From positions 24,477,196 through 24,541,195 of the forward strand of contig NC_058053.1 in the NCBI RefSeq assembly GCF_020085105.1: a stretch of 64,000 nt of DNA, given 5' to 3'. Below the pieces are notes generated by a model. The model did not search any database and was not told the origin of the DNA. It was given only the letters and a program-made list of their open reading frames with translations. The position numbers were made by a program, and so were the translations under genes. Below are positions 1 to 57,589 of the stretch, in pieces. Positions within the stretch are counted from its first letter, which is position 1; every line of letters begins with the position of its first letter. The DNA is from Siniperca chuatsi. Taxonomy: Eukaryota.

Positions 1-1795
1 GACTTACTCAAGCCACCCGTACAGCTGGATCTCAGAATGAACTGACAGCTTTCGCATGATGGCGATTTGAGATACAGTTACTAGTCTAATGACAACGCGA
101 CTGCATTATGCAGGCTATCGGGGCCGTCTCAGTCACGTAAGTTTCTCAGCTAGTCATCAGCAGAAGTTGCTTATGACTTGTTAGCTACGTCTGGACACAT
201 TTACTAAGACTCCCAGCAGATGAGCATGTTCACACATTTTGTGAGATGACAGTCTGCTAGTACCTGCCTCACGGCCAGTGCTAGGCATGTCTCACATCGT
301 CATCTATGTCCTAGTGATTCCAGATCTCGTGTACGTATCACTATTCTTACTCGAAACTTGATCTGTACCAGTTTGTATGACCGATCGGTTGATAAGCTCT
401 GCCTCACACTTCAGGCTGACTGCCAGCCTGTCAGTTGAGCTGACTACGTTGATTTGTACTTAGATTACACTCTACTCTCGTAGAGGTACCTGCTTCACTC
501 ACCATGCGCGGTCACCCATGTCTACAGAAGACTCAGGATGCAGGCATAGCTTGCTGAACCTAGATTCTAGCTGTAATTATCGTACTCTAAACTAGTCTCA
601 GTCACTCTCAACCGGTACCTGTCAGGATCTTGGCATGTCTCGTCGACCAGCTGCTGCTGCAGTCGTCCCTCTGACGCAGTTCAGTCAGAACAAGGTCCGA
701 CATGTGCCTGACGTCCTGAGTTCTCAAGTCTGACGCCACTCGTAGTACCAGCTCGACTCTTGCATTCAGACGTTCTGGAATTAGACGCAGCATGCTAGTC
801 TACCAGCTCTGTACTTCAGTTCTGTACCAAGCCTTACACACTCCTAGCTCCACCGTGCTGTTTCTGTGATTCCATCTACGCTGTGGCTCTGTAGATCTTG
901 TCCCAGTGTACCTCATACTTAGCGCGTGACACGTCTGAACGTGTGAAGCTACTGTCTCAGTCACAGAGCCCGGTTCCGTAGAGCTCGCCAGCTCACACGC
1001 TTGCAGCAGCACTGCGATCTCAGCAGTCCTGATCCTGGCTCAAGCTCTATGCAGATGCTGTATGCCGTGCGACATGCGCAGTTCCAGTGCTCCAGCCTGC
1101 CTCATGTGACAAGCTAGTCAGAATCTATCACCGGTGACAGTAGCATGGCCCTAGCAATCTAGCTTATCTGTTACTGTCCCTCGTAACTACGCCGTACGTC
1201 GCAGTCATTGCATGTAGCGAGCGTGCTGCGATCTGTACTTCAGCATTGTACAGAGATTCTGAACGTATAATCCTCTTGTCATGACTTAAGCTGTTACGAC
1301 TCCGCTCCGATCCCTTCTATTCTCGTTCCTGGATCCGATTCTCACGTAGCAGGACAAGCCTGCTAGGACCAACCGCTATGCTTCACCGACGACTGGCGTT
1401 GACTAGATGCTCTTCCCTGGTTCTGCTCAGGGATCACCTCGCTAGTCTCAAGCCGAACGCGATCCGTCTGCCTCCATCTGACACGCAGTAGAAGTGCTTG
1501 TGACATTCTGTCCGACTAGCCCGACTCTACCGCTTACAGTCCTACAACGGCCCCATGTCAGCTTATCGATTAACCATCCGAGATCCGTAGCGCGCTCAGC
1601 AGTCCTGAGCGCTACCCTGTTTCGTTGGTTCTGGTGGTAGTGGGCTGTGACGCTCCAGAGCATGAGCGCATTTTACACCATCAGCCGCTCTCTGCCTGTT
1701 CCTTCGGACCAATGAATCAGATTCTGCCAGCTTACTTAGCATTCATCTCTCGTCCTGCCCTACTCGAGACCTCGTGAGCTTCGGGCTAGCGAAGC
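1..1795. other. Compositionally anomalous block: ~50% GC, CpG not depleted, almost no homopolymer runs or simple repeats, no ORF >71 aa. Origin unclear (foreign, artificial or mis-assembled segment?)
   Basis: Read directly: only about 20 runs of >=3 identical bases in 1.8 kb, against >100 expected for random sequence. Frequent CG dinucleotides. No A/T tracts or microsatellites, whereas the rest of the window is AT-rich with abundant A/T runs. Confidence 0.5.
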
Positions 1796-2304
1796 ACTGA
1801 CTTGAGAAAGGGGCCGGTCAGTGTCCCTGCAGCCGGGAGCCTTCGCAGCCAACGCCGTCAGCGTACGGCCTGTCAGGTCCGTCAGGCCCCGGTCAGGGCT
1901 GAAACCCGGGTTTCAACCCATCCCGATCCCTACCCGATCCGACTCTTCCTCAGGTTTTCTCTAATCCGGACTCCGGGACTGCTCCCCTTTGTCTGGCGGA
2001 AAGGGCGCCGCCACGGACTAATCTTGAGCCCAAGCTCTTGGCCCCGGGGCTTCTGCCATGGTTAGCCCATCGACCAAGGCTCGCCGCCTGGTGGCCCAGA
2101 AGATGGGGGAGAGCTTGACCCCCCCTCCTGCGGCACTCTGCGGCACCAAGAGGCCCGACGGCTGCCTCGCTCCGGACGAGCCGACCATTCCCCGGCCCTG
2201 GGCGTGGTGCTTGCGCCACACTCTCCGCCTGAACACCCGGGGTTAAGGAGCCCATTGACTCCCGCGCGCTGTCCAGGGGTTTCTTTTCATTCAAAGGCGG
2301 TCTT
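1796..2304. other. Very GC-rich (~65%) CpG-rich segment of unknown nature, abutting a LINE 3' tail
   Basis: Composition by eye. Overlapping ORFs on both strands (1802-2065 +, 1950-2294 -, 2058-2246 +) show no recognisable domains. Confidence 0.35.
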
Positions 2305-2870
2305 TTTTAACGCACTCCATGACGTGCTGGTCAAGCAAAGGAGTACCTTCAGCGGAAGACTCATCCCCACAATGCACCACAGAGCGCCACAGGAAGTCAT
2401 TCCTGCCTGTGGCCATCAAACTCTTTAACTCCTCCTCTAAGTGTTAGTCTGTATGACCCTAAGTCACTAAACTGGACATTGATCATTACATCTCTGCAAT
2501 ACTTGAAACAATCGTGCAATATTCTGTGTAATACTCCTGTGCAATATTTAGTTTTTCCTATTTATTATTCATACCTCCATTACTGCTCTTGCACTACTAC
2601 TTATTACTTATATTATTACATTGCATTATTATACCATATTATCATCATCAACCGGTAAACCCACTTGGTACTGCACACTTATTTTATTTTAGACTTATAC
2701 CCACCTGGTACTTAATTTATTTTCTGACCTGTTTTTATAGTTTTAGAGTGTATTGTATTATATTTTTTTGCTAGTACTTTCTCCTGTGTGCACTGACGTA
2801 AAGGCGAGCTGCTGTAACAAAGACTTTCTCTTGGGGGATCAATAAAGTCTTTCTGATTCTGATTCTGAAA
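2305..2870 (+). mobile_element. Non-LTR retrotransposon 3' end: ORF2 C-terminal tail (...FSGRLIP..RHRKSFLPVAIKLFN), 3'UTR and (TCTGAT)n tail. Rex1/Babar-like CR1-clade family, copy 1 of 4 in this window
   Basis: Near-identical to 42180-42800. Ends with 'caataaagtctttctgattctgattctga'. The tail peptide motif is typical of teleost LINE ORF2 ends (family name is a hedged recollection). Confidence 0.6.
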
Positions 2871-2894
2871 AAGAGCCAACTGAGTCAAAGAACT

Positions 2895-3140
2895 GTCGCC
2901 TCAACTCTGGCCAATGGCCTTCTCGGAGATGTCCCGCCCCTTCCAATCACCGCACAGTATTTGTTCCCGTTAGACAAAACACACAGCCAATCAGATGGCT
3001 GAATTTGTTCCAATTGCGAGAATCAATGTTTTTCGCATCCAATGGGAGAAGCGGATTTGTTCCAATTTCTCTCAGTGATCCCGCCTCCTGCAAGCGGACT
3101 TTTTACTGCAGCGGAGACAGAAGCAAGTCGGTGAGTGAAG
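2895..3140 (+). promoter_or_regulatory. Putative RNA polymerase II promoter plus first non-coding exon: six CCAAT motifs in ~250 bp, GC box 'cccgcccc', then 'gcggagacagaagcaagtcg|gtgagtg' splice donor
   Basis: Motifs read in the sequence (ggccaatgg, tccaatcac, gccaatcag, tccaattgcg, tccaatggg, tccaatttc). Established: NF-Y CCAAT and Sp1 GC boxes are typical of TATA-less promoters. Confidence 0.35.
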
Positions 3141-3699
3141 CATTTGTCAATTATTATGAAGTATTGGACGGAAAACATGTTAAAAACTTATAATTCCGTC
3201 TGACAGTCATACTGAGCTAACCGAGGTGTTTGTATGTTGTGAAATAGTTGAGTGACGGATGACACAGCGTAAAGTTAGAGCATTATTAGTTCTTACAATG
3301 TCAGACTTTAATTTTACTGTAAGGAATTTATTATATAAACGTTTTTATAAATTGCTTTGTTTTAGCCAGCTAACGTTCATGCTGTTAAAACCATTTTAAA
3401 CACTGTACTGCAGGCTGATAGCATGCTAACACACCCACCGCTGTCGGCTGGTCGGTGTGTTTCATACTGCTTATGTGATTAACAGTCCAGCGGAGCTGAA
3501 GGCAGCCGGCATGTTTTATGGGGAAACTAGCAGCTGGTCGAGTGGCTGGTGGATTCCTTAAGCCTTCCTGTTCCACCAGGAGAGAAAGTGCAGCTCCTCA
3601 CCGTATGAATATTCAATTAGCCATGCTGCCAGGAAGGTAAACAGAGGCGGAGCCTGCCATAGGCAACAAGCGGAGAGAAGCAACAGTCAAAAGGTCGCT

Positions 3700-3850
3700 T
3701 TTATTTACAGTTTTTACAATGTACAAAACATCTACTAAGACTCCACACTCTTCTGCAGTAATTCTGTCTCGGTTAAACTGCTTTACAACCCCTGAAGCGC
3801 TTCTCCAGCTTTGCCACAGCCGGGGATCGAACCGCTGACCGCTGAGCCCC
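3700..3850 (-). mobile_element. Possible tRNA-derived SINE fragment (B-box-like GGTTCGATCCC on the minus strand)
   Basis: Reverse complement reads '...ggctcagcggtcagcGGTTCGATCCCcggctgtggca...'. Only the B-box is recognisable. Confidence 0.2.
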
Positions 3851-3877
3851 CTCCTCTTTTTACTCAGTCAATGAACT

Positions 3878-4122
3878 GTCGCCTCAACTCGGCCAATGGC
3901 CTTCTCGGAGATGTCCCGCCCCTTCCAATCGCCGCACAGTATTTGTTCCCTTTAGGCAGAACACACAGCCAATCAGATGGCTGAATTTGTTCCAATTGCG
4001 AGAATCAATGTTTTTCGCATCCAATGGGAGAAGCGGATTTGTTCCAATTTCTCTCAGTGATCCCGCCTCCTGCAAGCGGACTTTTTACTGCCGCAGAGAC
4101 AGAAGCAAGTCGGTGAGTGAAG
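3878..4122 (+). promoter_or_regulatory. Second copy of the CCAAT/GC-box promoter-like module with the same splice donor
   Basis: Same motifs as 2895-3140. Confidence 0.35.
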
Positions 4123-4267
4123 CATTTGTCAATTATTATGAAGTATTGGACGGAAAACATGTCAAAAACTTATAATTCTGTCTGACATTAGTCATAATGA
4201 GCTAACCGAGGTGTTTGTATGTTGTGAAATAGTGAGTGATGGATGACACAGCGTAAAGTTAGAGCCG

Positions 4268-4365
4268 GACCAGACTCCACTCAAGTGGAGACAACATAAA
4301 AGGAAGTGGTGCTGCCAGTGTTCCTCCCTTTTTTCCTCAATCATAACATTCTGTCATTTGGTTAT
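4268..4365 (+). repeat. Interspersed repeat unit (second copy at 11459-11550): '...caagtggagacaacataaaaggaagtggtgctgccagtgtt...gtcatttggttatttt'
   Basis: Two ~90 bp segments at ~90% identity, read by eye. Confidence 0.5.
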
Positions 4366-4435
4366 TTTAAGTGTTACGATTAGTCAAGCCGGGAAACAGG
4401 GAATGCCAGGGAACAGGACCCAAATACTTACTATT

Positions 4436-4438
<3 letters not shown>

Positions 4439-4470
<32 letters not shown>
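4439..4470 (+). repeat. Poly(A) tract (~32 nt)
   Basis: Direct. Confidence 0.95.
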
Positions 4471-4473
<3 letters not shown>

Positions 4474-4799
4474 TTACACTGAATTGGCGGGCAAAGCAAC
4501 TCTCAGTTGGTAAGCAGTCCAAAACAGAAACACAAGTCCCATAGTGAGCAGGCAAAATCTAAAATCCAAAATCTGCAGACAAAATCCACAAGGTCCACAA
4601 GATTCAAGGCCAAGCGGAAGATCTCAGGCTGACGACCCAGGGGCAGGACAGAAACGGGGCAGCGAACCTCAGGACGGTCCGGGGGCAGGACAGATAAAGG
4701 GCTGGGAGCCTCAGGCGGATGGCTCGAGGACTGAAAAGAAGAGCAGAGCAAGTCAGGGGGGCGCCCAGGAGGCAGGGCTGAAGGGCTGAGCAGGTCTCG

Positions 4800-4960
4800 G
4801 TGATGACCAGATGTACGAAGCAACTCAGGAGGTCGGCGACAAAGGCAAAATCCCTCCGGAGGCCGGACTGGAGACCGGCGGCGAAGGCAGAACCTCTCCG
4901 GAGGCCGGCGATGAAGGCGGAACCCTTCCAGAGGAAGGATGTGGCTGCTGCGACCCAACC
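4800..4960 (+). repeat. Minisatellite, ~33 bp unit x3-4 ('ggcagaacctctccggaggccggcgatgaa'-like)
   Basis: Direct. Explains the long proline/arginine-rich ORFs at 4503-5033 and 4604-5020 on the minus strand. Confidence 0.6.
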
Positions 4961-5639
4961 TGAGGCAGGATGCTTGACAGATGTACAATGACGATCTGAC
5001 ACAGAACAAAGGAAGAACACAGACTAAATACACTCAGGTAGGGGAGACAACGAGCTGAACCAGCTGACACAGGTGAAAACAATGAAAGCAATCAAAGACA
5101 GGAAGCCAAACTACCTGACAGAAGAGGGAGGGAGAATATTATAAAACAGGGAAACAGGAAATAACAGGACAAAACCCCAAAACCATTCTTCACATTCAAT
5201 TGGCAAATCTCATACAAGGCGCTTATTGAAGCCGCTTTAGCCTGCCTACCCTTGTTGCTTCCTCTGCAAGCCGCTTTGCAAGCTACCCCAGAACGACCAG
5301 ACTAACAGTGTACGTGCTTCAAATTACCCTGCTGCTTGTCATGTCGATTCCTGTCCATGATGAGGATCCATGGCAGATCGACTGGTATTATGGATTCACA
5401 GCACCAGCGATCTGAAGCAGAGAGTGCCGTTTCCATCCGCCGGTGCTCTCGTCTGGCAAGTAAACATTAAAATACTCCCAGCATTATTTGAATGACCAGT
5501 ACCCAGACTCCTGGAAACCTTATTTCGGAAGACCATTACAGCTCCAGTCGGAGCTTTTCATGAAGAGTTTTTCACATTGTTCGAGGAACATTCCTATCGA
5601 ACTCCCACCTGCAGATATTTTATGATAAAAGTTTTCTTT

Positions 5640-5815
5640 GACTAAAGTGGTCCTGACTGAAATGTTATTTCCACCGTTGTCATGGTTTTGGGTTTTTGTC
5701 CTGCTATTTCCTGTTTTACTTTGTAATATTCTAGCTCCTTCTTGTGTCTGGTAGTTTAGCTTCCTGTCTTTGATTGCTTTCACTGTTTTCACCTATGTCT
5801 AATTGTCTCCCCTAC
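5640..5815 (-). repeat. Inverted partial copy of the 3' part of the 4375-5190 repeat
   Basis: The reverse complement of 5640-5815 matches 5030-5180 ('cactcaggtaggggagacaa...caaaaccatgaca'). Confidence 0.6.
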
Positions 5816-6615
5816 CTGAGTGAATTTACTGTAAGTCTGTGTTTTTCCTTTGCTTAGTGTCAGATCGTCGTTGTACCATGTGCCCTGCGTTTGGCCCCAG
5901 TTCTGCATTTTTCCTATGCCTCTGTGTCCTCTGTGGATTTACCTTTATTGAACTTCTCAAGGATTAGTCTTTGTTGGATGTTTTACCTGAACTTCTTAGC
6001 CGCCCTCAGTTGTTTTTGTCTTCCTTCATAGTAAGTAAATAGTTAAAAGTTATCTTTTGTTCATTTCACCATCTCCGTGTGTATTGTCTACATGTGGGTC
6101 CACCTCCTGAACTGAATGCAACAACTGTGTTTCACTCTGGGCAGCAGGTTGAAGCCCCTACAGCCCCCTCTTTCAGCAGCCAAGTATTATGGACACTGGG
6201 TAGAGATTTTAATGCCAAATTGATATGTAGTGTAAACATTACAAGTATGAACATTTCACTTATGAGCAGCAACTGAAAAGCCCACTCAAAGAAGCTTCTT
6301 TAGAAATAACATTGTTTTCTGTCTACAGTATAGGCTATAACAGTTTTTAGGAACCTGTAAAATATTAAGTTACTTTATTCCTTTTACACTTGTTCTTGTG
6401 ACTGAACATTAAGCAAATCTAGCTTCTGAAAGTTCCTGTTTCAAGTGAGGTGACAACCACTTACCGCACAAACTATATTTACTGTCTTTGAGATGTGACT
6501 TCCTGAATCTAAAGTTCATAACAACTGAACCCAATAAGAGTTTTCTCATTTTCATGTAGAGAAACTTGCGCTCCAGAGTCGACCCTCGACAAAATATCTG
6601 GCATTCTTATGAGCG

Positions 6616-6682
6616 ATGGAGGAAATCTATGTGAATGTTGAATATGACAAATCTGACTCAAAAATGTCACAGAATCAGACAG
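6616..6682 (+). CDS. Lectin A exon 1: cytoplasmic tail MEEIYVNVEYDKSDSKMSQNQT (YxxV motif); ends phase 1 at a GTAAGA donor
   Basis: ATG at 6616. N-terminus 'MEEIY(V/A)NVE' matches fish CLEC4/CD209-like receptors as I recall them. Donor gtaaga at 6683. Confidence 0.75.
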
Positions 6683-6796
6683 GTAAGAATGAGTAGCACA
6701 TAAGCTGACAGACTAAGCTCTGCATAAATGTGTATTATTATCTGTCATATTACTGTTGTATACTTGATTGTATTCACTGGTCTTCTCTGTGTTCAG

Positions 6797-6898
6797 GTCC
6801 CAGGAGCCCAGAGAGCAGGTTTCATGGAGCTGTTGTTCTCTTTCTGGGGCTGCTGAATGTTTTCCTGCTGGCTTTGCTCATCTGCCTCGGTGTCCTCT
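6797..6898 (+). CDS. Lectin A exon 2: transmembrane segment ...GPRSPESRFHGAVVLFLGLLNVFLLALLICLGVL
   Basis: ORF track 6730-6981. 'ttcag' acceptor at 6796, GTGAGT donor at 6899. Hydrophobic 23-aa stretch. Confidence 0.8.
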
Positions 6899-7472
6899 GT
6901 GAGTCTGGTTCACATTCAGAAGTTAGTCAAGCTGAACTCATGATTATAGGAACATCATTCACTTTAACTTTTCATCCATGATTTACTCTGACCTGTTTTT
7001 AAAATTTTTATTTTTTGTTTCGATTGCATTGTTTTCAATATTTTGTACACAATCAAACCTCAAACAGCCAAATCAACATAACAATGCCTCATTTCATTTT
7101 TGTGACGTGTTCAAATTGAATTGGTGCATTTCAGCATTTATCCAGTATCAACTTAATTGCTTATTACACGAGTATCATTTTCAAGACACAAAAGCAGTGA
7201 CATGTTGTATTTCTACTGCTGACAGCTGCACTGAATTACATTTGATGTTCAATTAAACTGCAGTCAAATATGTTCCCTTTACTGAAGACTGCCAGAGTTT
7301 CACTACACTCTTTGAATGGCAGTATTTCATAAGTTTCATTAAGTATGATCATTGATAATCGTGGGACAAAATAAGGAAATATGTAGTCTTGTGAAATACA
7401 ATAGCTCTTTCTATAGAACATGAATGCAGAAGATATCTTGTGTTTCAGAGAAATGTCTCTTGATTATTTCAG

Positions 7473-11458: not shown

Positions 11459-11550
11459 CATTCAAGTGGAGACAACATAAAAGGAGGTGTTGCTGCCAGT
11501 GTTACTTCCTCTGTCCTCAATGTACTGTCATTTGGTTATTTTTCCTCTTT
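11459..11550 (+). repeat. Second copy of the 4268-4365 repeat unit
   Basis: Aligned by eye. Confidence 0.5.
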
Positions 11551-12995: not shown

Positions 12996-13012
12996 CTAAC
13001 CCTAACCCTAAT
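12996..13012 (-). repeat. Short interstitial telomere-like repeat (CCCTAA)2.7 exactly at the truncation point of a duplicated lectin TM exon
   Basis: 'ctaaccctaaccctaat' read directly. It abuts the 3'-truncated exon copy at 13014. Confidence 0.6.
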
Positions 13013-13013
13013 G

Positions 13014-13111
13014 GACACCGAGGCTGATGAGCCCAGCCAGCAGGAAAACACTCAGCAGCCCCAGACAGAGAACAACAGCTCCACGAAACCTCCTCTCTGA
13101 GCTCCTGGGAC
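13014..13111 (-). pseudogene. Lectin paralog C: TM-exon-like copy (SGPRSSERRFRGAVVLCLGLLSVFLLAGLISLGV), 3'-truncated
   Basis: The reverse complement matches the TM exons of A and B, with the 'ctgtgttcag' acceptor retained. The last ~6 nt and the donor are replaced by TTAGGG-like repeats. Confidence 0.6.
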
Positions 13112-13237
13112 CTGAACACAGAGAAGACCAGTGAATACAGTCAAGTATACAACAGTAATAATGACAGATGATGATAACAATAAACATCTATTCACAGCTC
13201 AGTCTGTCAGTCTCTCAGTCTGACTGAACATTCTTAC

Positions 13238-13289
13238 CTGTCTGGGTATTTAAGGGTCTTGGGTCAACAGGTTTGTCGTGTTCCTCCAT
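13238..13289 (-). pseudogene. Lectin paralog C: exon-1-like copy (MEEHDKPVDPRPLNTQT, gtaaga donor) lacking the IYVNVE (YxxV) segment
   Basis: Reverse complement aligned with B exon 1 (MEEIYVNVEHAKPVDARPSTNQT). Similar upstream flank. Confidence 0.5.
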
Positions 13290-13329
13290 TGATGCCGACT
13301 ATTTTATGAAGGGTCACCTCTGCAGCACA

Positions 13330-14395
13330 TGCTACGTTACATGTAAATGACTTAAGTTGTCTGCAGGACAAACTCTCCCAGCTGAGTGTGACTGACTCCA
13401 CCTGCAGGTGGATCACACACTTCCTGTCCGACAGGAGGCAGCACACAAGGCCGGGGAAACGTGTCTCTGACTCCCGGACCATCAGCACCGGTTCCCCCAA
13501 GGCTGCGTTCTTTCGCCTCTGCTCTTCTCCCTGTACGCCAACAGCTGCACCTCCAGTCATCAGTCCGTCAAGCTCCTGAAGTTCACGGATGACACCACCC
13601 TCTTGGGCTCATCTCTGATGGGGATGAGTCCGCTTACAGGTGGGAGATTGACCATCTCATGATCTGGTGCAGTCAGAACAACCTGGAGCTCAATGCTCTC
13701 AAGACAGTGGATATAGTTGTGGATTACAGGAAGAACCCAGCCCCACCTGCCCCCATCACCCTGTGTGACTCCCCAGGTGACACTGTGGAGTCCTACGCTT
13801 CCCGGACACCATCATCACCCAGGAGCTCAAGTGGGAGCTGAACATCAGGTGATTGGCTGCAATCTACCTTCCCTCCAGGACCTGTACGCCTCCAGGACCC
13901 CGAGGCTGCAGGAAAGATTGTGGCAGACCCCTCCCACCCTGGACACAATCTGTTTCAGACACTCCCCTCCGGCAGGAGGCTGCGGTCCAAAAGGACCAAA
14001 ACCTCACGCCACAAAAACAGTTTCTTTCTGTCTACAGTTTCTTTCCGTCAGGACCCCCACTGACACTGACTCCCATAACCACCCAACTCACCCCTTTTAG
14101 TACAGACTGTACAACTTTTGCACATTCCCATGTAAATATTTTGCACATCTCTGCACAAACTGTAATTTAAATAAGTCATATTGTACATATACTTTATTAT
14201 TTTCTTATGCTCTTTTTAAATATTATTTAATATCTTATTGTCAATTTTATCTTATATTTATGATTCTTGACCTGCAGTACTTGCTTTATCTTTCCTCATA
14301 TTTCTACTATGTTTACTGTTTTGCGCCAAAATACCAAAGCAAATTCCTTGTATGTGTGAACCTACTTTGCAGTAAAGCTGATTCTGATTCTGATT
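13330..14395 (+). mobile_element. 5'-truncated non-LTR retrotransposon (RT domain ...GAPQGCVLSPLLFSLY...FTDDTT... with frameshifts, then the ORF2 tail ...LQDLYASRTPRLQERL...HPGHNLFQTLPSGRRLRS... and a ctgattctgattctga tail). Copy 2 of the Rex1/Babar-like family
   Basis: ORF track 13388-13579, 13659-13841, 13717-14100 and 13853-14170. RT motifs read by hand. Confidence 0.7.
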
Positions 14396-17968: not shown

Positions 17969-18899
17969 CGCTCATGAACATGCCAGCTTTTTCCTAGAAG
18001 GTCAGCTCTGCAGCATGGACCACATGTAAATGATGAAACGCCTGATGGTTTCAATTTCTCCTTTTTTCAATTTATGAGGAAGTGACAAATTTCAGAGGTG
18101 ATGAAAATAGGCTGTACCATCCACCACTGAAACTCAAATTGCATGACTTCTGCATGGTGTCACGTGTCTTTTTATCTATAGATGATCTTCACACTGCATC
18201 ACGTTTGTACTGAGATTGGGAAACTGGCTCTTAAATACTATGCTCTACAGATGTGGAACATTCTGCAGAAGCTTGTGAAATTAGACAAGCTTTTAATCAA
18301 TTAAAATCTCCTTTGATTGACAGAGCAGTGTGAATGCATGTTTTCTTCGAATTGATCTTGTCCCTTATGTTGATGTCCTTGGCCCTTTTTGTAGTATAAT
18401 TTGTTGAATGTATACTGTAACTTTTGTGGGCTTTTTCTGCTTTACAGGTACTGTAATCAGGACCAGTTCGATTCTCAGTGCGGATGCGTCGGTGCATGAC
18501 AGCTTACAGATTGTAATTCCCACGCCGCTATTTTGATTTGTGTAACTTACTGTTACCAGCAGTGCTGTGCGAGAAATGACTGTTGAGAAAGGAAAGGCAC
18601 GTTTCTATTTGTTACTAGATGTTTATTTCTTTCAGTCCTGGCCACCTGTAATGCCTCCACCAGGCCTGCTACACACAGCATAAACTGTAAGTACCAGTCA
18701 TGGCTACTTGACTTTAGACGGCTGATTTTACAATGTCTTCAAAGGACAGTAACAAAACATTTAAAGACTGTCATCTATATTTTGAAGTGTTGCTCCCTTG
18801 TTCTATTTTCTCCTACAGATGTGACATAATAGTGTTGTAAACATGAAAAACTGAGCCACCCTTTATAGTTAACTTTATATTTTTCATTATCTGAAGCAT

Positions 18900-42052: not shown

Positions 42053-42800
42053 TTGAAGAAGGATATCACCGCCAGAGAGTCAGCTCCACCCCACAATGTC
42101 ACTGGCCTGATCCGTAAGGCCAGTGACATTGTGGGGCTGGAGCTGGACTCTCTGGCGGTGGTGTCAGAGAGGAGGATGCTGGCCAAACATGCCATCTTGG
42201 ACAGTGTCTCCCACCCTCTCCATGACGTGCTGTTCAAGCAAAAGAGCACCTTCAGCGGAAGACTCATCCCCCCACAATGCACCACAGAGCGCCACAGGAA
42301 GTCATTCCTGCCTGTGGCCATCAAACTCTTTAACTCCTCCCTCTAAGGGTTAGTCTGTATGACCCTAGGTCACTAAACTGGACATTGATCTTTACATCTC
42401 CGCCATAATTGAATAATTGTGCAATATTCTGTGTACTACTCCCATGCAATATTAGTTTTCCCATGTTAGTTTTTCCTATTTATTGTTATTGATATTATAT
42501 ACCTCTATTACTCTCAACAGTACATGCACCTCTGCTTATTACTTATTACTTATTTTGTTACATTGTATTATTATACTGTACTATCATCATCAACCGGTAA
42601 GCCCACTTGGTACTCGACACTTAGTTTATCTTATACTTATACCCACCCGGTACCTAATTTATTCTCTGACCTGTTTTTATAGTGTTTTTATAGTGTATCA
42701 TATTGTTTGCTAGTACTTTCTGCTGTGTGAACTGACGTAAAGGCAAGCTACTGTAACAAAGAGTTTCCCTACGGAGATCAATAAAGTATTTCTGATTCTG
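42053..42800 (+). mobile_element. Non-LTR retrotransposon 3' end (ORF2 tail ...SVSHPLHDVLFKQKSTFSGRLIPPQCTTERHRKSFLPVAIKLFNSSL*, 3'UTR, ctgattctgat tail); copy 3, inside PARP4 intron 1, antisense to the gene
   Basis: ORF track 42053-42346 (+). ~90% identical to 2305-2870. Confidence 0.7.
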
Positions 42801-42883
42801 ATATTTAGTTTTTAATAAAAGGCCTTAACCAGCCTGATATCTCTGCAAACAGTCATGCCTGGTACTAAGGAACATCCTCTGAC

Positions 42884-43009
42884 CTCTTTATTGACCACAA
42901 ACAAAATGTGGCCTCCATTCTCTGTTACTGCTGACTTCAGCTTCTTCTTCTCCGTGTAGGGCAAATTCCTCAGCTCCAAAAGCACAGAGCAGTTCTCAAA
43001 CACAGCCAT
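42884..43009 (-). CDS. PARP4: PARP4 exon 1: MAVFENCSVLLELRNLPYTEKKKLKSAVTENGGHILFVVNKE
   Basis: ATG at 43009. Aligns to human MVMGIFANCIFCLKVKYLPQQQKKKLQTDIKENGG. Donor gtcaga. Confidence 0.75.
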
Positions 43010-43849
43010 GCCTGTCAGGAGTGGACACACCCAAAGAAGTTAAATTTAAATAAATAATGCACACACCTAAAAGAGGATTGCTGGGAAACAAATACGGAAG
43101 TAAATCCACAGAACTACGCTGTACAACAGCCGAAAGGAAAAGAAGAAGACGCTGTACAACAAAAAAAAAAAGTGCAAAACAGGCCACGATGTGAAAGTAT
43201 CTGAATAAAAATGTAACTTATAACGATACAATCACATCGGGGTGCACTGGAAACAGCATAACTGTACATAGGCCTAAATATAGGCCTATGTACAGTTATG
43301 TACATGTTTTCGACGTATATTTTTCATATAACGACTATGGAAAAAAATAAAGACACAAAACAATCAGAATTAAACAATTCAGAAAGTAAGCAAGAAAGTG
43401 AAGGTGTCCCAAAATGTCGAATGAAATGTTTGATATGCATTTTAAAAATCATTTGGATAATTGTACAAATTAACAACATAGTAACAGCTATTAGCTAACG
43501 TTAGATGAGACGTAAGGTTATCTAACGTCTGGTTAAATAAAGAAACTGAGGTTTACTTTACTGTTAACATTCATGCGATACTTCTGCAGGTTGCTGTCAG
43601 AAAGTAAAAGCTGACGTTAGTTCTTGTATCAGACGAAGCACTGAAAAACACAGACTACTTCTGTCAGGTTAGCATAAAGCTAGCAGCGGAATCGTGTCGT
43701 CTTCCGGTGCGTGTGTTCATGTTTTCAAAATAAAGGTCGCGACGTCAACGTGAAATGAAGGATCTTTCACAATAAACTCCCTCGCTATCATAATGAACAA
43801 CCAGTGGTGAAAGAAGTTCTCAGATATTTCACTTAAGTAAAAATAGCGG

Positions 43850-44760
43850 TGCCAAAGGGTATACATACTCTTCTTCTTTTCCTTTCGGCTGTTCCCTTTC
43901 AGGGGTCGCCACAGCGAATCATGTGCCTCCATCTAACCCTGTCCTCTGCATCCTCTTCACTCACACCAGTTAACTTCATGTCCTCTCTCACTACATCCAT
44001 AAATGTCCTCTTTGGTCTTCCTCTAGACCTCCTGCCTGGCAGCTCCAACCTCAGCATCCTTCTACCAATATATTCACTGTGTCTCCTCTGAACATGTCCA
44101 AACCACCTCAATCTGGCCGCTCTGACTTTATCTCCGAAACATCTAACATGAGCTGTCCCTCTGATGTCCTCGTTCCTGATCCTGTCCATCCTCGTCACTC
44201 CCAAAGAGAACCTCGACATCTTAAGCTCTGCTACCTCCAGCTCTGCCTCTTGTCTTTTCTTCAGTGCCGCTGTCTCTAAGCTGTACAACATCGCTGGTCT
44301 CACCACCGTCTTGAACACCTTTCCTTTCATTCTTGCTGATACTCTTTTATCACACAACACACCTGACACTTTTCTCCACCCGTTCCAACCTGCTTGCACT
44401 CGCCTCTTCACCTCTTTTCCAAGGTCTCCATTGCTCTGAACTGTTGACCCTAAGTACTTAAAGTCCTGCACCTTCTTCACCTCTGCTCCCTGTAACCTCA
44501 CCGTTCCACCTGGGTCCCTCTCATTGACACACATGTATTCTGTCTTACTGCGGCTAAGCTTCATTCCTCTGTTTTCCAGAGCAGACCTCCATCTCTCTAG
44601 ATTTTCCTCCACCTGCTCCCTGCTCTCACTACAAATCACAATGTCATCCGCAAACATCATAGTCCATGGAGATTCCTGTCTAACCTCATCTGTCAGCCCG
44701 TCCATCACCAGAGCAAACAAGAAGGGGCTCAGAAAAGCCATGCATTTAAAAAATTCTACT
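43850..44760 (-). mobile_element. 5'-truncated non-LTR retrotransposon: reverse transcriptase C-terminal half (FADDIVICSESREQVEENLERWRSALENRGMKLSRSKTEYMCVNE...RWRHMIRCGDP), ~0.8 kb upstream of the PARP4 start
   Basis: ORF track 43899-44741 (-, 280 aa). The FADD motif (YADD variant) and RT thumb are recognisable. Clade not assigned. Confidence 0.85.
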
Positions 44761-57164: not shown

Positions 57165-57589
57165 AGTCAAGCTGGGAAACAGGGAATTCAATGGAATAGG
57201 ACCCAAGCGCAGATAAGCAGGTAGCTGGTGCAGATCAATAGTTTATTAACAAAAAGGCTTACACTGAATTGGCAGGACAAAAAGCAACTCTAAGCAGGTA
57301 AGCAGTCCAAAACAGAAAAACAAGTCCAAAGGTGAGCAGGCAAAATCCAAAATCCAAATTCCACAGACAGGCAACAACAAGGGAAGAAACCAGGGCACTA
57401 GACAGAGATACAACAACAAACTGACAAATGAACAACCAAGGACAAAGACTGAAATACACTTAGGTTAGGGAGGCAACGAGACACAGGTGAAAACAATCAA
57501 AGTAAATCAAAGACAGGATGCAAAACTAAAAGAGACTTGAGGGAAGGAGATGAACACAAACCCCAAAACCATGACATGTGCAATATGTT

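Follow-up and report, generated by a model that had tools for sequence, protein, structure and literature searches.

A duplicated CCAAT-rich promoter-like module upstream of a CD209-like lectin gene in Siniperca chuatsi

The G2/M promoters of cyclin B, CDC25C and TOP2A are TATA-less, carry multiple CCAAT and GC boxes, are conserved and are usually unmethylated. NF-Y/Sp1 promoters of this G2/M type often show a box spacing of about 32-33 nt and a CHR element. In NF-Y-dependent TATA-less promoters, transcription is expected to begin some 60-100 nt past the proximal CCAAT box. A promoter made of sub-repeats is seen more typically in mobile or viral elements. The monomers of the mouse L1 5'UTR are CpG-rich, methylated units of about 200 nt that directly abut each other, with ORF1 next. 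At UGT1A and protocadherin-type loci, each duplicated first exon has a promoter of its own, and these alternative exons stand before common downstream exons. NF-Y-bound retroviral LTRs with multiple CCAAT boxes have been documented in mammals (PMC12065363, PMC3730095). Those LTRs (ERV9/LTR12C and MER122; RLTR10B2 and MMERGLN) are lineage-specific and often silenced, and their transcripts can splice into neighbouring genes (PMC12065363, PMC3730095, PMC5085097).

Here we describe a duplicated CCAAT-rich module found near one end of a 64-kb window, by which we mean the whole stretch of 64,000 nt that was analysed. The window also holds a lectin whose exons 3-6 are 100% identical to the Siniperca chuatsi CD209-like lectin.

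The duplicated module and its motifs

As listed in Table 1, the module is present as two copies, M1 and M2, on either side of a spacer. A sequence-only reading of this DNA had noticed two copies of about 410 bp, more than 95% identical and about 983 bp apart. This was borne out by blastn, which found direct repeats with 95.8% identity over 406 columns and an offset of 982-985 nt. In an alignment of 401 columns the copies differ by 12 substitutions and 5 gap columns (three indels), with a K2P distance of 0.031. Neither blastn nor nhmmer, the latter run with a profile built from M1 and M2, found a third copy in the 64-kb window; nhmmer also found none in three other fishes (about 80 kb searched), and no TIR or TSD was seen. 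Exact 24-mers from both module halves had 0 matches in metagenome and viral contigs, which are poor proxies for fish genomes. The 108-codon frame of the module had no protein relative in a word-indexed search or in an exhaustive HMMER search against 1.84 billion representatives, and its long minus-strand frames had none in one concatenated protein query or, for a subset, in Pfam. The long frames of the spacer gave no coding relative in a concatenated protein search and, for a subset, no Pfam match. Because these frame searches gave no protein relative, we regard both module and spacer as non-coding.

Table 1. Positions in the window of the module copies, their motifs and the neighbouring features (a slash marks a splice boundary)
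Feature	Position	Strand	Remarks
LINE 3' end, 5'-truncated, (TTCTGA)3 tail	2310-2866	+	tail 13 nt before M1
Module copy M1	2879-3281	+	403 nt; promoter-like 5' half, donor-containing 3' half; blastn, alignment, nhmmer
TGAGTCA at M1 5' edge	2881-2887	+	TCAGTCA in M2 (mutated)
Six CCAAT boxes, M1	2911-3066	+	starts 2911, 2943, 2987, 3010, 3039, 3062
GC box cccgcccc (Sp1-type), M1	2933-2940	+	M2 equivalent 3915-3922
Three internal 32-nt sub-repeats	2940-3067	+	at 2940, 2984, 3036; spacing 44, 52 nt; each CCAAT...ATTTGTTCC
Second, weaker GC box cccgcc, M1	3080-3085	+	M2 equivalent 4062-4067
Donor-like TCG/GTGAGT, M1	3131-3136	+	donor matrix score
Spacer between copies	3282-3861		580 nt, single-copy; nhmmer, protein search of all frames, Pfam
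Isolated Pol III B-box consensus GGTTCGATCCC	3823-3833	-	motif scan
Module copy M2	3862-4265	+	404 nt; 95.8% identical to M1
Six CCAAT boxes, M2	3893-4048	+	same as M1 set; motif scan
Donor-like TCG/GTGAGT, M2	4113-4118	+	donor matrix score
Lectin-gene 3'-flank relic	4278-4368	+	starts 12 nt after M2
Inverted-repeat element, long arms at 4960-5186 / 5682-5900	4375-6101		between M2 and lectin A
Lectin A conserved proximal upstream region and 5'UTR	6383-6615	+	ACTTCCT (ETS-type) motif; YAG/AG at 6558/6559
Lectin A first coding exon	6616-6681	+	MEEIYVNVEYDKSDSKMSQNQT, then GTAAGA

The six CCAAT motifs predicted for each copy are present on one strand, in a tighter span (156 nt) than the roughly 250 bp first proposed. 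The number expected by chance is 0.12 (Poisson P = 3e-9 at a background rate of 7.5e-4 per nt per strand), and every other 156-nt stretch of the window has at most two. The cluster arises in part because the 32-nt sub-repeat occurs three times. The NF-Y flank consensus is RRCCAATSR, and flanks of this type are good at three of the six boxes (2911, 2987 and 3039, with GGCCAATGG, AGCCAATCAG and ATCCAATGG), which are spaced 76 and 52 nt. The boxes at 3010 and 3062 fall within the sub-repeat motif ATTTGTTCCAATT, and the GC-box unit is found twice in M1, at 2920 and 3067 (2 x 27 nt). The cccgcccc box that had been reported was recovered in both copies. The TGAGTCA at the M1 edge matches the AP-1/TRE consensus. 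No TATA box was found upstream of the proposed transcription start, and no CHR element was seen in the module. The motif content of the module is that of a TATA-less CCAAT/GC-box promoter, and the clustering is far beyond chance.

A donor-like site lies about 90 nt past the last well-flanked CCAAT box. It had been described as AG/GTGAGT at about 3141 and 4123; GTGAGT is indeed present in both copies, but the exon side reads TCG and the positions were about 10 nt off. Scored with a vertebrate donor matrix, the site is at the 99th percentile of the plus-strand GT sites in the window. Donors as good occur once per ~2.1 kb (GTGAGT itself is found 16 times on the plus and 21 times on the minus strand of the window), so that the module donor alone is not beyond chance.

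The spacer had been thought to hold a tRNA-B-box-like SINE fragment. The exact B-box is there and is the sole match in the window (expected 0.07; at least one in 6 of 100 shuffles). On the minus strand an A-box-like GGGCTCAGCGG precedes it by just ~5 nt, a spacing that is not tRNA-like. No tRNA-like structure was found in the spacer by ARAGORN or in Rfam (E up to 10), which leaves its assignment as tRNA or SINE unsupported by either, and nhmmer found no other copy of the spacer in the 64-kb window.

Divergence between the copies and flanking sequence

The CpG observed/expected ratio of the module is about 0.8 (0.84 in M1) versus a window median of 0.31, and it is at least 0.6 throughout positions 1-4400. 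Six of the 12 substitutions between M1 and M2 are at CpG columns, which make up 10% of the alignment (p = 5e-4). Divergence is 15% at CpG versus 1.7% at other sites, a ninefold excess that rests on 12 substitutions in all. CpG transitions account for 4 of the 7 transitions, and transversions make up two of the six changes at CpG sites. With half of the substitutions at CpG, real divergence under germline methylation is indicated. This pattern suggests that the module is methylated in the germ line rather than a constitutively open promoter, and the methylation so inferred suggests in turn that the cassette is mostly silent there. The high CpG content itself could equally fit a genuine unmethylated host promoter that was very recently duplicated. 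Taking teleost neutral rates of ~1-3.5e-9 per site per year, the 1.7% non-CpG divergence would place the duplication a few million years ago.

To the left of M1, the LINE piece has a second copy at 42213-42802 (83%). Beyond it, positions 1791-2310 form a 66% GC block that would abut the module were the LINE fragment not there. The composition of the window's first ~1790 nt does not look like that of natural DNA, and this part gave no match to the rest of the window when homopolymer-compressed. A minus-strand gene driven by the module was considered and rejected, as a convincing ATG exon and a Pfam match are both lacking in 1650-2320. To the right of M2, the relic is homologous to 11459-11542, which lies 1.3 kb past the lectin A stop, and to lectin 3' flanks in Chaetodon and Enoplosus. 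The inverted-repeat element that follows has an expanded internal A34 run and a related copy at 57165-57577. A retrocopy made of M2 and this A34 run was ruled out by the copy at 57165-57382, because the run is an expanded internal CAAAAA of the element.

No homologue of positions 1-4277 was found in Micropterus (L001), syntenic Chaetodon (L004) or Enoplosus (L005), whereas the lectin gene aligns well in the same three species over its proximal region, its exons and its 3' flank. This transposon-filled block seems to have lost an upstream lectin paralogue.

Origin of the module and competing explanations

The explanation that we prefer, and to which we give about an even chance, is that M1, spacer and M2 arose when a promoter cassette of NF-Y/Sp1 type, either an orphan or derived from a repeat, was locally duplicated in this lineage not long ago. 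An ordinary orphan or repeat-derived promoter relic is most likely. The cassette is a non-coding, CpG-rich unit of about 400 nt with a 5' half built of sub-repeats bearing CCAAT and GC boxes, a design that resembles the promoter/enhancer of repeats, a retroviral U3 or an orphan-promoter relic, and it lies in the non-conserved block 1-4277, full of transposon debris. Its repeat or mobile-element origin is putative: neither the 64 kb of this genome nor ~80 kb from the other fishes yielded a further copy, and TSD, TIR and LTR hallmarks are lacking. The internal promoter region of an uncharacterised transposon, first raised as an alternative to lectin exons, would be one such origin. If the cassette is active, Sp1 and NF-Y, the latter bound to the three good CCAAT boxes, would direct Pol II to start at ~3095-3125 in M1 and ~4077-4107 in M2. 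The predicted product is a non-coding exon of ~10-35 nt ending in TCG/GTGAGT, giving non-coding or chimeric transcripts. The duplication probably occurred by unequal exchange or template switching, with subsequent loss of a second spacer.

Alternatively, an unannotated host gene or lncRNA could have its true promoter, which may be bidirectional, and its first exon in the module; after partial tandem duplication the spacer would be the start of the first intron. The CpG-island-like composition, the NF-Y/Sp1 layout with its suitably spaced donor, and the fact that module and spacer are both single-locus within the sequence searched are all consistent with this, and the 66% GC block would adjoin the module absent the LINE. 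We nevertheless judge it unlikely. A conserved, hypomethylated CpG-island promoter is not what we found: the module is not conserved in three related species, where it is absent, and the 6 of 12 differences at CpG amount to CpG-biased decay. No exon with a protein relative was seen up- or downstream, sub-repeat-built promoters are commoner in mobile or viral elements, and to the left there is a LINE fragment and, beyond it, DNA of abnormal composition.

A narrower form of host function, raised at the outset as a possibility, makes M1 and M2 alternative 5' ends of lectin A (CD209-like protein E): two TATA-less promoters whose non-coding first exons would be spliced at 3131 or 4113 to the ATG exon. 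The geometry holds as first described (2.4-3.5 kb downstream): the modules are on the same strand, each with a strong donor, and the lectin A ATG at 6616 is 2.35 kb from the M2 end and 3.5 kb from the M1 donor. There are two candidate acceptors before this ATG, at 6558/6559 and 6581/6582. The first (ttttctcattttcatgtag/AG in lectin A) is a YAG/AG 57 nt before the ATG that could be the acceptor of an upstream non-coding exon. An orthologue-type mRNA contig (L002) begins exactly at Chaetodon's conserved YAG/AG, the equivalent of 6558/6559, and could mark an exon boundary, and homology between lectin A and its paralogue B by standard blastn begins only 46 nt before the ATG.

Against this reading, lectin A has its own conserved proximal block. 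Positions 6383-6616 are conserved in Micropterus (77%), alignment starts from 6409 in Enoplosus and from 6473, with 6245-6325 in addition, in syntenic Chaetodon, and similarity to paralogue B reaches -142; the proximal 230-370 bp are conserved in three species and between paralogues. The 56- and 104-nt 5'UTRs in spliced mRNA contigs of two homologues are collinear with proximal genomic DNA. One of them (L003) continues through the region equivalent to the acceptor and is collinear with the genome for at least 104 nt before the ATG, through the ETS motif, and the start of L002 may be a mere transcription start or contig end. The 10 kb that precede the lectin genes of Micropterus, Enoplosus and Chaetodon do not contain the module, nor was it found near paralogue B by blastn or nhmmer. 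A 1.7-kb repeat and the relic of another lectin's 3' flank intervene between M2 and lectin A, and the CpG-biased differences between the copies suggest methylation. A literature search on the mandarin-fish lectin 5'UTR returned nothing useful. The earlier picture of a TATA-less NF-Y promoter with a first exon is supported in motif content, CCAAT clustering, two Sp1-type boxes, lack of TATA and a strong donor, and is disfavoured where it offered the modules as 5' exons of lectin A. According to these alignments the module is not part of the conserved regulatory region of lectin A, and we consider its use as alternative first exons quite improbable. Somewhat more doubtful still is the version in which a lineage-specific, repeat-built NF-Y/Sp1 cassette reached the DNA before the lectin in the mandarin-fish lineage, was duplicated at that site and then co-opted as one or two alternative lectin A promoters with non-coding first exons. 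Such co-option would give a myeloid, ETS-type lectin gene an additional, NF-Y-driven mode of expression, of the cell-cycle or stress type.

Two direct repeats of ~400 nt around a short internal region, with the 3% divergence typical of LTR pairs, a promoter-like, U3-like 5' half and a tRNA-like motif adjoining one repeat, recall a degenerate LTR retrotransposon or TRIM, with M1 and M2 as its LTRs and the 580-nt spacer as internal remnant. This model is very hard to credit and was rejected on five hallmarks. There is no TG...CA, as the copies begin ACT(G/C)AGTC and end GTTAGAGC (ACTGAG...TTAGAGC). There is no 4-6-bp TSD (left ...GAGCCA, AGCCA; right CGGACC..., CGGAC); a TSD, had one existed, could have been erased by later insertions on the right side. 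No TGG-initiated PBS follows either possible 5' LTR (ATTATTAGTTC follows M1), and the tRNA-like piece is sense where a PBS would need antisense. M2 is preceded by the pyrimidine run CCCCCTCCTCTTTTT and not by a polypurine tract; the sole polypurine run, AAAAAGAGGAGGGGG on the minus strand, is at the PBS position and not before the 3' LTR. Neither AATAAA nor ATTAAA occurs in 2879-3281, and Pfam and the protein search of frames gave no gag/pol remnant. An assembly artefact, with haplotypes or noisy long reads set in tandem, is just as remote: the odd composition of the first ~1790 nt hints that this window end may be poorly assembled, but 3% with three indels is far above heterozygosity-level differences, the CpG share of substitutions (6/12) and transitions (4/7) is a biological signature, and the spacer is present once, not duplicated.

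Significance and comparison with known systems

On present evidence the locus is an ordinary by-product of turnover in the lectin gene cluster. If transcription did run from the module into lectin A, this would be a clean case, in a teleost, of an innate-immune receptor gene rewired by a young, duplicated promoter of repeat type, in parallel to the LTR12-driven genes of primates. The chief practical use of the locus is as a warning, since a promoter-plus-donor appearance does not make a first exon where the gene has its own conserved proximal promoter. CpG-biased divergence between copies is a simple hint of germline methylation that needs nothing beyond the sequence and can be reused on other duplicated candidates.

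Like human ERV9/LTR12C and MER122 and mouse RLTR10B2 and MMERGLN, the module is lineage-specific and packs same-strand CCAAT boxes into a repeat-built promoter region. Unlike those LTRs, it is without TG..CA, TSD, PBS, PPT or poly(A) signal, its host is a teleost, its NF-Y sites are predicted and no dispersed family is known for it. With the promoters of cyclin B, CDC25C and TOP2A it shares multiple CCAAT and GC boxes, the lack of TATA, raised CpG and a short (here predicted) 5' exon, but its well-flanked boxes are 76 and 52 nt apart, there is no CHR, and it is unconserved in three fishes and shows CpG-biased decay. The copies appear to resemble mouse L1 monomers as CpG-rich, putatively methylated, tandem-duplicated units of promoter type with internal repeats; their period of 983 nt, the unique spacer and the lack of a LINE ORF after them are different, and the adjoining LINE piece is a 3' end located upstream of M1. 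As at UGT1A and protocadherin-type loci, repeated promoter-plus-donor units are found upstream of exons on the same strand; here, however, the donors are candidates only, and the lectin first exon has its own conserved upstream region with collinear homologue 5'UTRs.

Composition of the duplicated module

The two copies of the CCAAT-rich module, M1 and M2, were aligned by blastn with 95.8% identity over 406 columns, so the near-identical pair proposed in the sequence-only reading is real. No third copy was found in the 64-kb window, either by blastn or with an nhmmer profile. The six CCAAT motifs claimed for each copy were also found: all are on the + strand and lie within 156 nt in M1 and likewise in M2, with 0.12 expected from the remaining window (P = 3e-9). 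Nowhere else in the window are there more than two CCAAT boxes per 156 nt, and the density in the module exceeds chance. The cluster is partly due to internal repetition, as a 32-nt unit occurs three times inside M1 (2940, 2984, and 3036) and is bracketed by two copies of a GC-box unit (2920 and 3067). Good NF-Y flanks surround only three of the M1 boxes (2911, GGCCAATGG; 2987, AGCCAATCAG; 3039, ATCCAATGG), and a repeated ATTTGTTCCAATT motif encloses two weak ones. The AP-1 consensus TGAGTCA is present at the 5' edge of M1.

An AG|GTGAGT splice donor had been placed at ~3141 and ~4123. GTGAGT is indeed present, at 3131 and 4113, but the exon side reads TCG|. Scored with a vertebrate donor matrix, the site is in the 99th percentile among GT sites. 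Equally good sites occur about once per 2.1 kb on the module's strand, and the window has 16 GTGAGT on one strand and 21 on the other. The site is a plausible donor but by itself no evidence.

Features of the window around the module and the lectin genes
Feature	Position	Strand	Remarks
LINE 3' end, 5'-truncated	2310-2866		83% identity to 42213-42802
M1	2879-3281		
Spacer	3282-3861		580 nt, single-copy
M2	3862-4265		
Putative lectin 3'-flank relic	4278-4368		12 nt after M2; homologous to 11459-11542
Repeat element with long inverted arms	4375-6101		~1.7 kb; related to 57165-57577
Lectin A	ATG 6616	+	N-terminal exon MEEIYVNVEY...
Lectin transmembrane-exon relic	13012-13294	-	isolated; adjoins LINE 3' fragments at 13264-14170
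Lectin B	ATG 17968	-	
VIT/vWA PARP4-type gene	after lectin B	-	

The module and the lectin genes

The window is teleost DNA, and a S. chuatsi CD209-like C-type lectin (P0001) matches exons 3-6 of lectin A at 100%. Synteny with the Chaetodon locus is genuine: a + strand lectin, a - strand lectin, and a - strand PARP4 come in identical order there.

It had been suggested that the module supplies alternative 5' exons to lectin A. We consider a role as alternative promoter of this gene unlikely, because the proximal sequence upstream of its ATG is itself conserved. Micropterus gene 1 aligns over 6383-6906 (77%) and Micropterus gene 2 from 6388 on; the alignment starts at 6409 for an Enoplosus lectin and at 6473 for the Chaetodon orthologue, which also matches 6245-6325, and that with paralogue B reaches back to about -142. 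In Logan sample SRR28040512, two lectin homologues are represented by spliced mRNA contigs with 5'UTRs of 56 and 104 nt; both are collinear with this proximal genomic DNA, and the longer runs through a conserved ACTTCCT (ETS-type) motif. Moreover, in Micropterus, Chaetodon, and Enoplosus the 10 kb of DNA upstream of the lectin genes gave no alignment with any part of window positions 1-4277, so the module is lineage-specific and not the ancestral lectin promoter. In favor of the link, the contig of the lectin A orthologue type (L002) has its first base immediately after a pyrimidine-rich, conserved YAG|AG, 57 nt before the ATG (6558|6559 in Siniperca, ~9944 in the Chaetodon locus, position 1 of L002). 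The site could be where transcription begins, where the contig is broken off, or a true acceptor, and the last would leave room for an upstream non-coding exon.

In the lectin proximal regions, ACTTCCT and GAAA-rich motifs at 6490-6560 and 18030-18090 (-) are common to paralogues and species. We take them to be ETS/PU.1-type and IRF-like, respectively, presumably fitting a myeloid-type TATA-less promoter. The transmembrane-exon relic is 76-79% identical in protein and 82-92% in DNA to Micropterus, Chaetodon, and Enoplosus sequences, and is a third, degraded lectin paralogue.

Divergence, surroundings, and identity of the module

The M1/M2 alignment holds 12 substitutions and 5 gap columns, with 401 aligned columns (K2P 0.031). 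CpG columns make up 10% of it but hold 6 of the 12 substitutions (binomial p = 5e-4), with a divergence of 15% at CpG sites versus 1.7% elsewhere. This bias is a biological mutational signature and argues against duplication by assembly artefact. As a mark of germline cytosine methylation, it also speaks against a CpG-island promoter that is constitutively open. The CpG o/e of the module is 0.8 (window median 0.31), and raised CpG content is common to the entire 1-4400 block. Given the methylation signature, the o/e of the module means that it was CpG-undepleted when it was duplicated, as would fit a sequence whose arrival or silencing was recent. The window's strongest CpG island, at 43001-44100, reaches an o/e of 1.23. 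It overlaps both the probable start of PARP4 (MAVFENC..., ATG ~43009, - strand) and a LINE reverse-transcriptase fragment (43899-44741, - strand), the latter in its 3' part.

The LINE fragment on the left ends in (TTCTGA)3, 13 nt before M1. Directly left of it is a 66% GC block (1791-2310) with a 72-nt imperfect palindrome (1872-1943), whose ORFs gave no Pfam match. The composition of 1-1790 is unlike the remaining window and natural vertebrate DNA: AA, CC, GG, and TT reach 0.47-0.67 of their expected frequency, a base equals its neighbor in only ~14% of cases (against 25-33% elsewhere), no homopolymer exceeds 3-4 nt, and the CpG o/e ranges from 0.65 to 0.95. It contains no repeats and does not match the remaining window, even homopolymer-compressed; noisy, unpolished, or artificial sequence is a possible explanation.

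To the right of M2, the ~90-nt relic matches lectin-gene 3' flanks in Chaetodon (L004, 15357-15444) and Enoplosus (L005, 4008-4087). In three species its relatives lie downstream of lectin genes, at a distance of 0.6-1.3 kb (in Siniperca 1.3 kb beyond the lectin A stop codon), which suggests the surviving 3' flank of an otherwise lost upstream lectin paralogue. The inverted-arm element that follows includes a 42-nt tandem repeat (4631-4714) and, in this copy upstream of lectin A, an A34 run. The run is an expanded internal CAAAAA and is therefore not the poly(A) tail of a module retrocopy.

As an LTR pair, M1 and M2 lack TG..CA, TSD, PBS, PPT, poly(A) signal, and internal coding remnants. The tRNA-B-box-like SINE fragment reported in the spacer holds up as to the B box, which is exact and unique in the window; a SINE was not supported, there being no tRNA-like structure, wrong A/B spacing, and no second copy in the window. 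Neither module nor spacer has a protein relative in any frame. As a dispersed transposon, the module lacks TIR and TSD, and no third copy of it was found within the ~145 kb compared. Metagenome and viral collections, scanned with exact words, gave zero matches and were uninformative.

Proposed nature of the module

The sequence best supports the reading that an orphan NF-Y/Sp1 promoter cassette, probably of repeat or virus type, was locally duplicated not long ago in a rapidly turning-over part of the lectin gene cluster, and that it is mostly silenced by methylation. If active, the cassette would initiate ~60-90 nt past the CCAAT box at position 3039 in M1 or 4021 in M2, and its very short, non-coding exon would run up to the GTGAGT donor. 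The module differs from LTR12C-type promoters in its lack of LTR features. Its closest known functional likeness is to the multi-CCAAT LTR promoters bound by NF-Y, such as LTR12C (PMC12065363, PMC3730095, PMC5085097).
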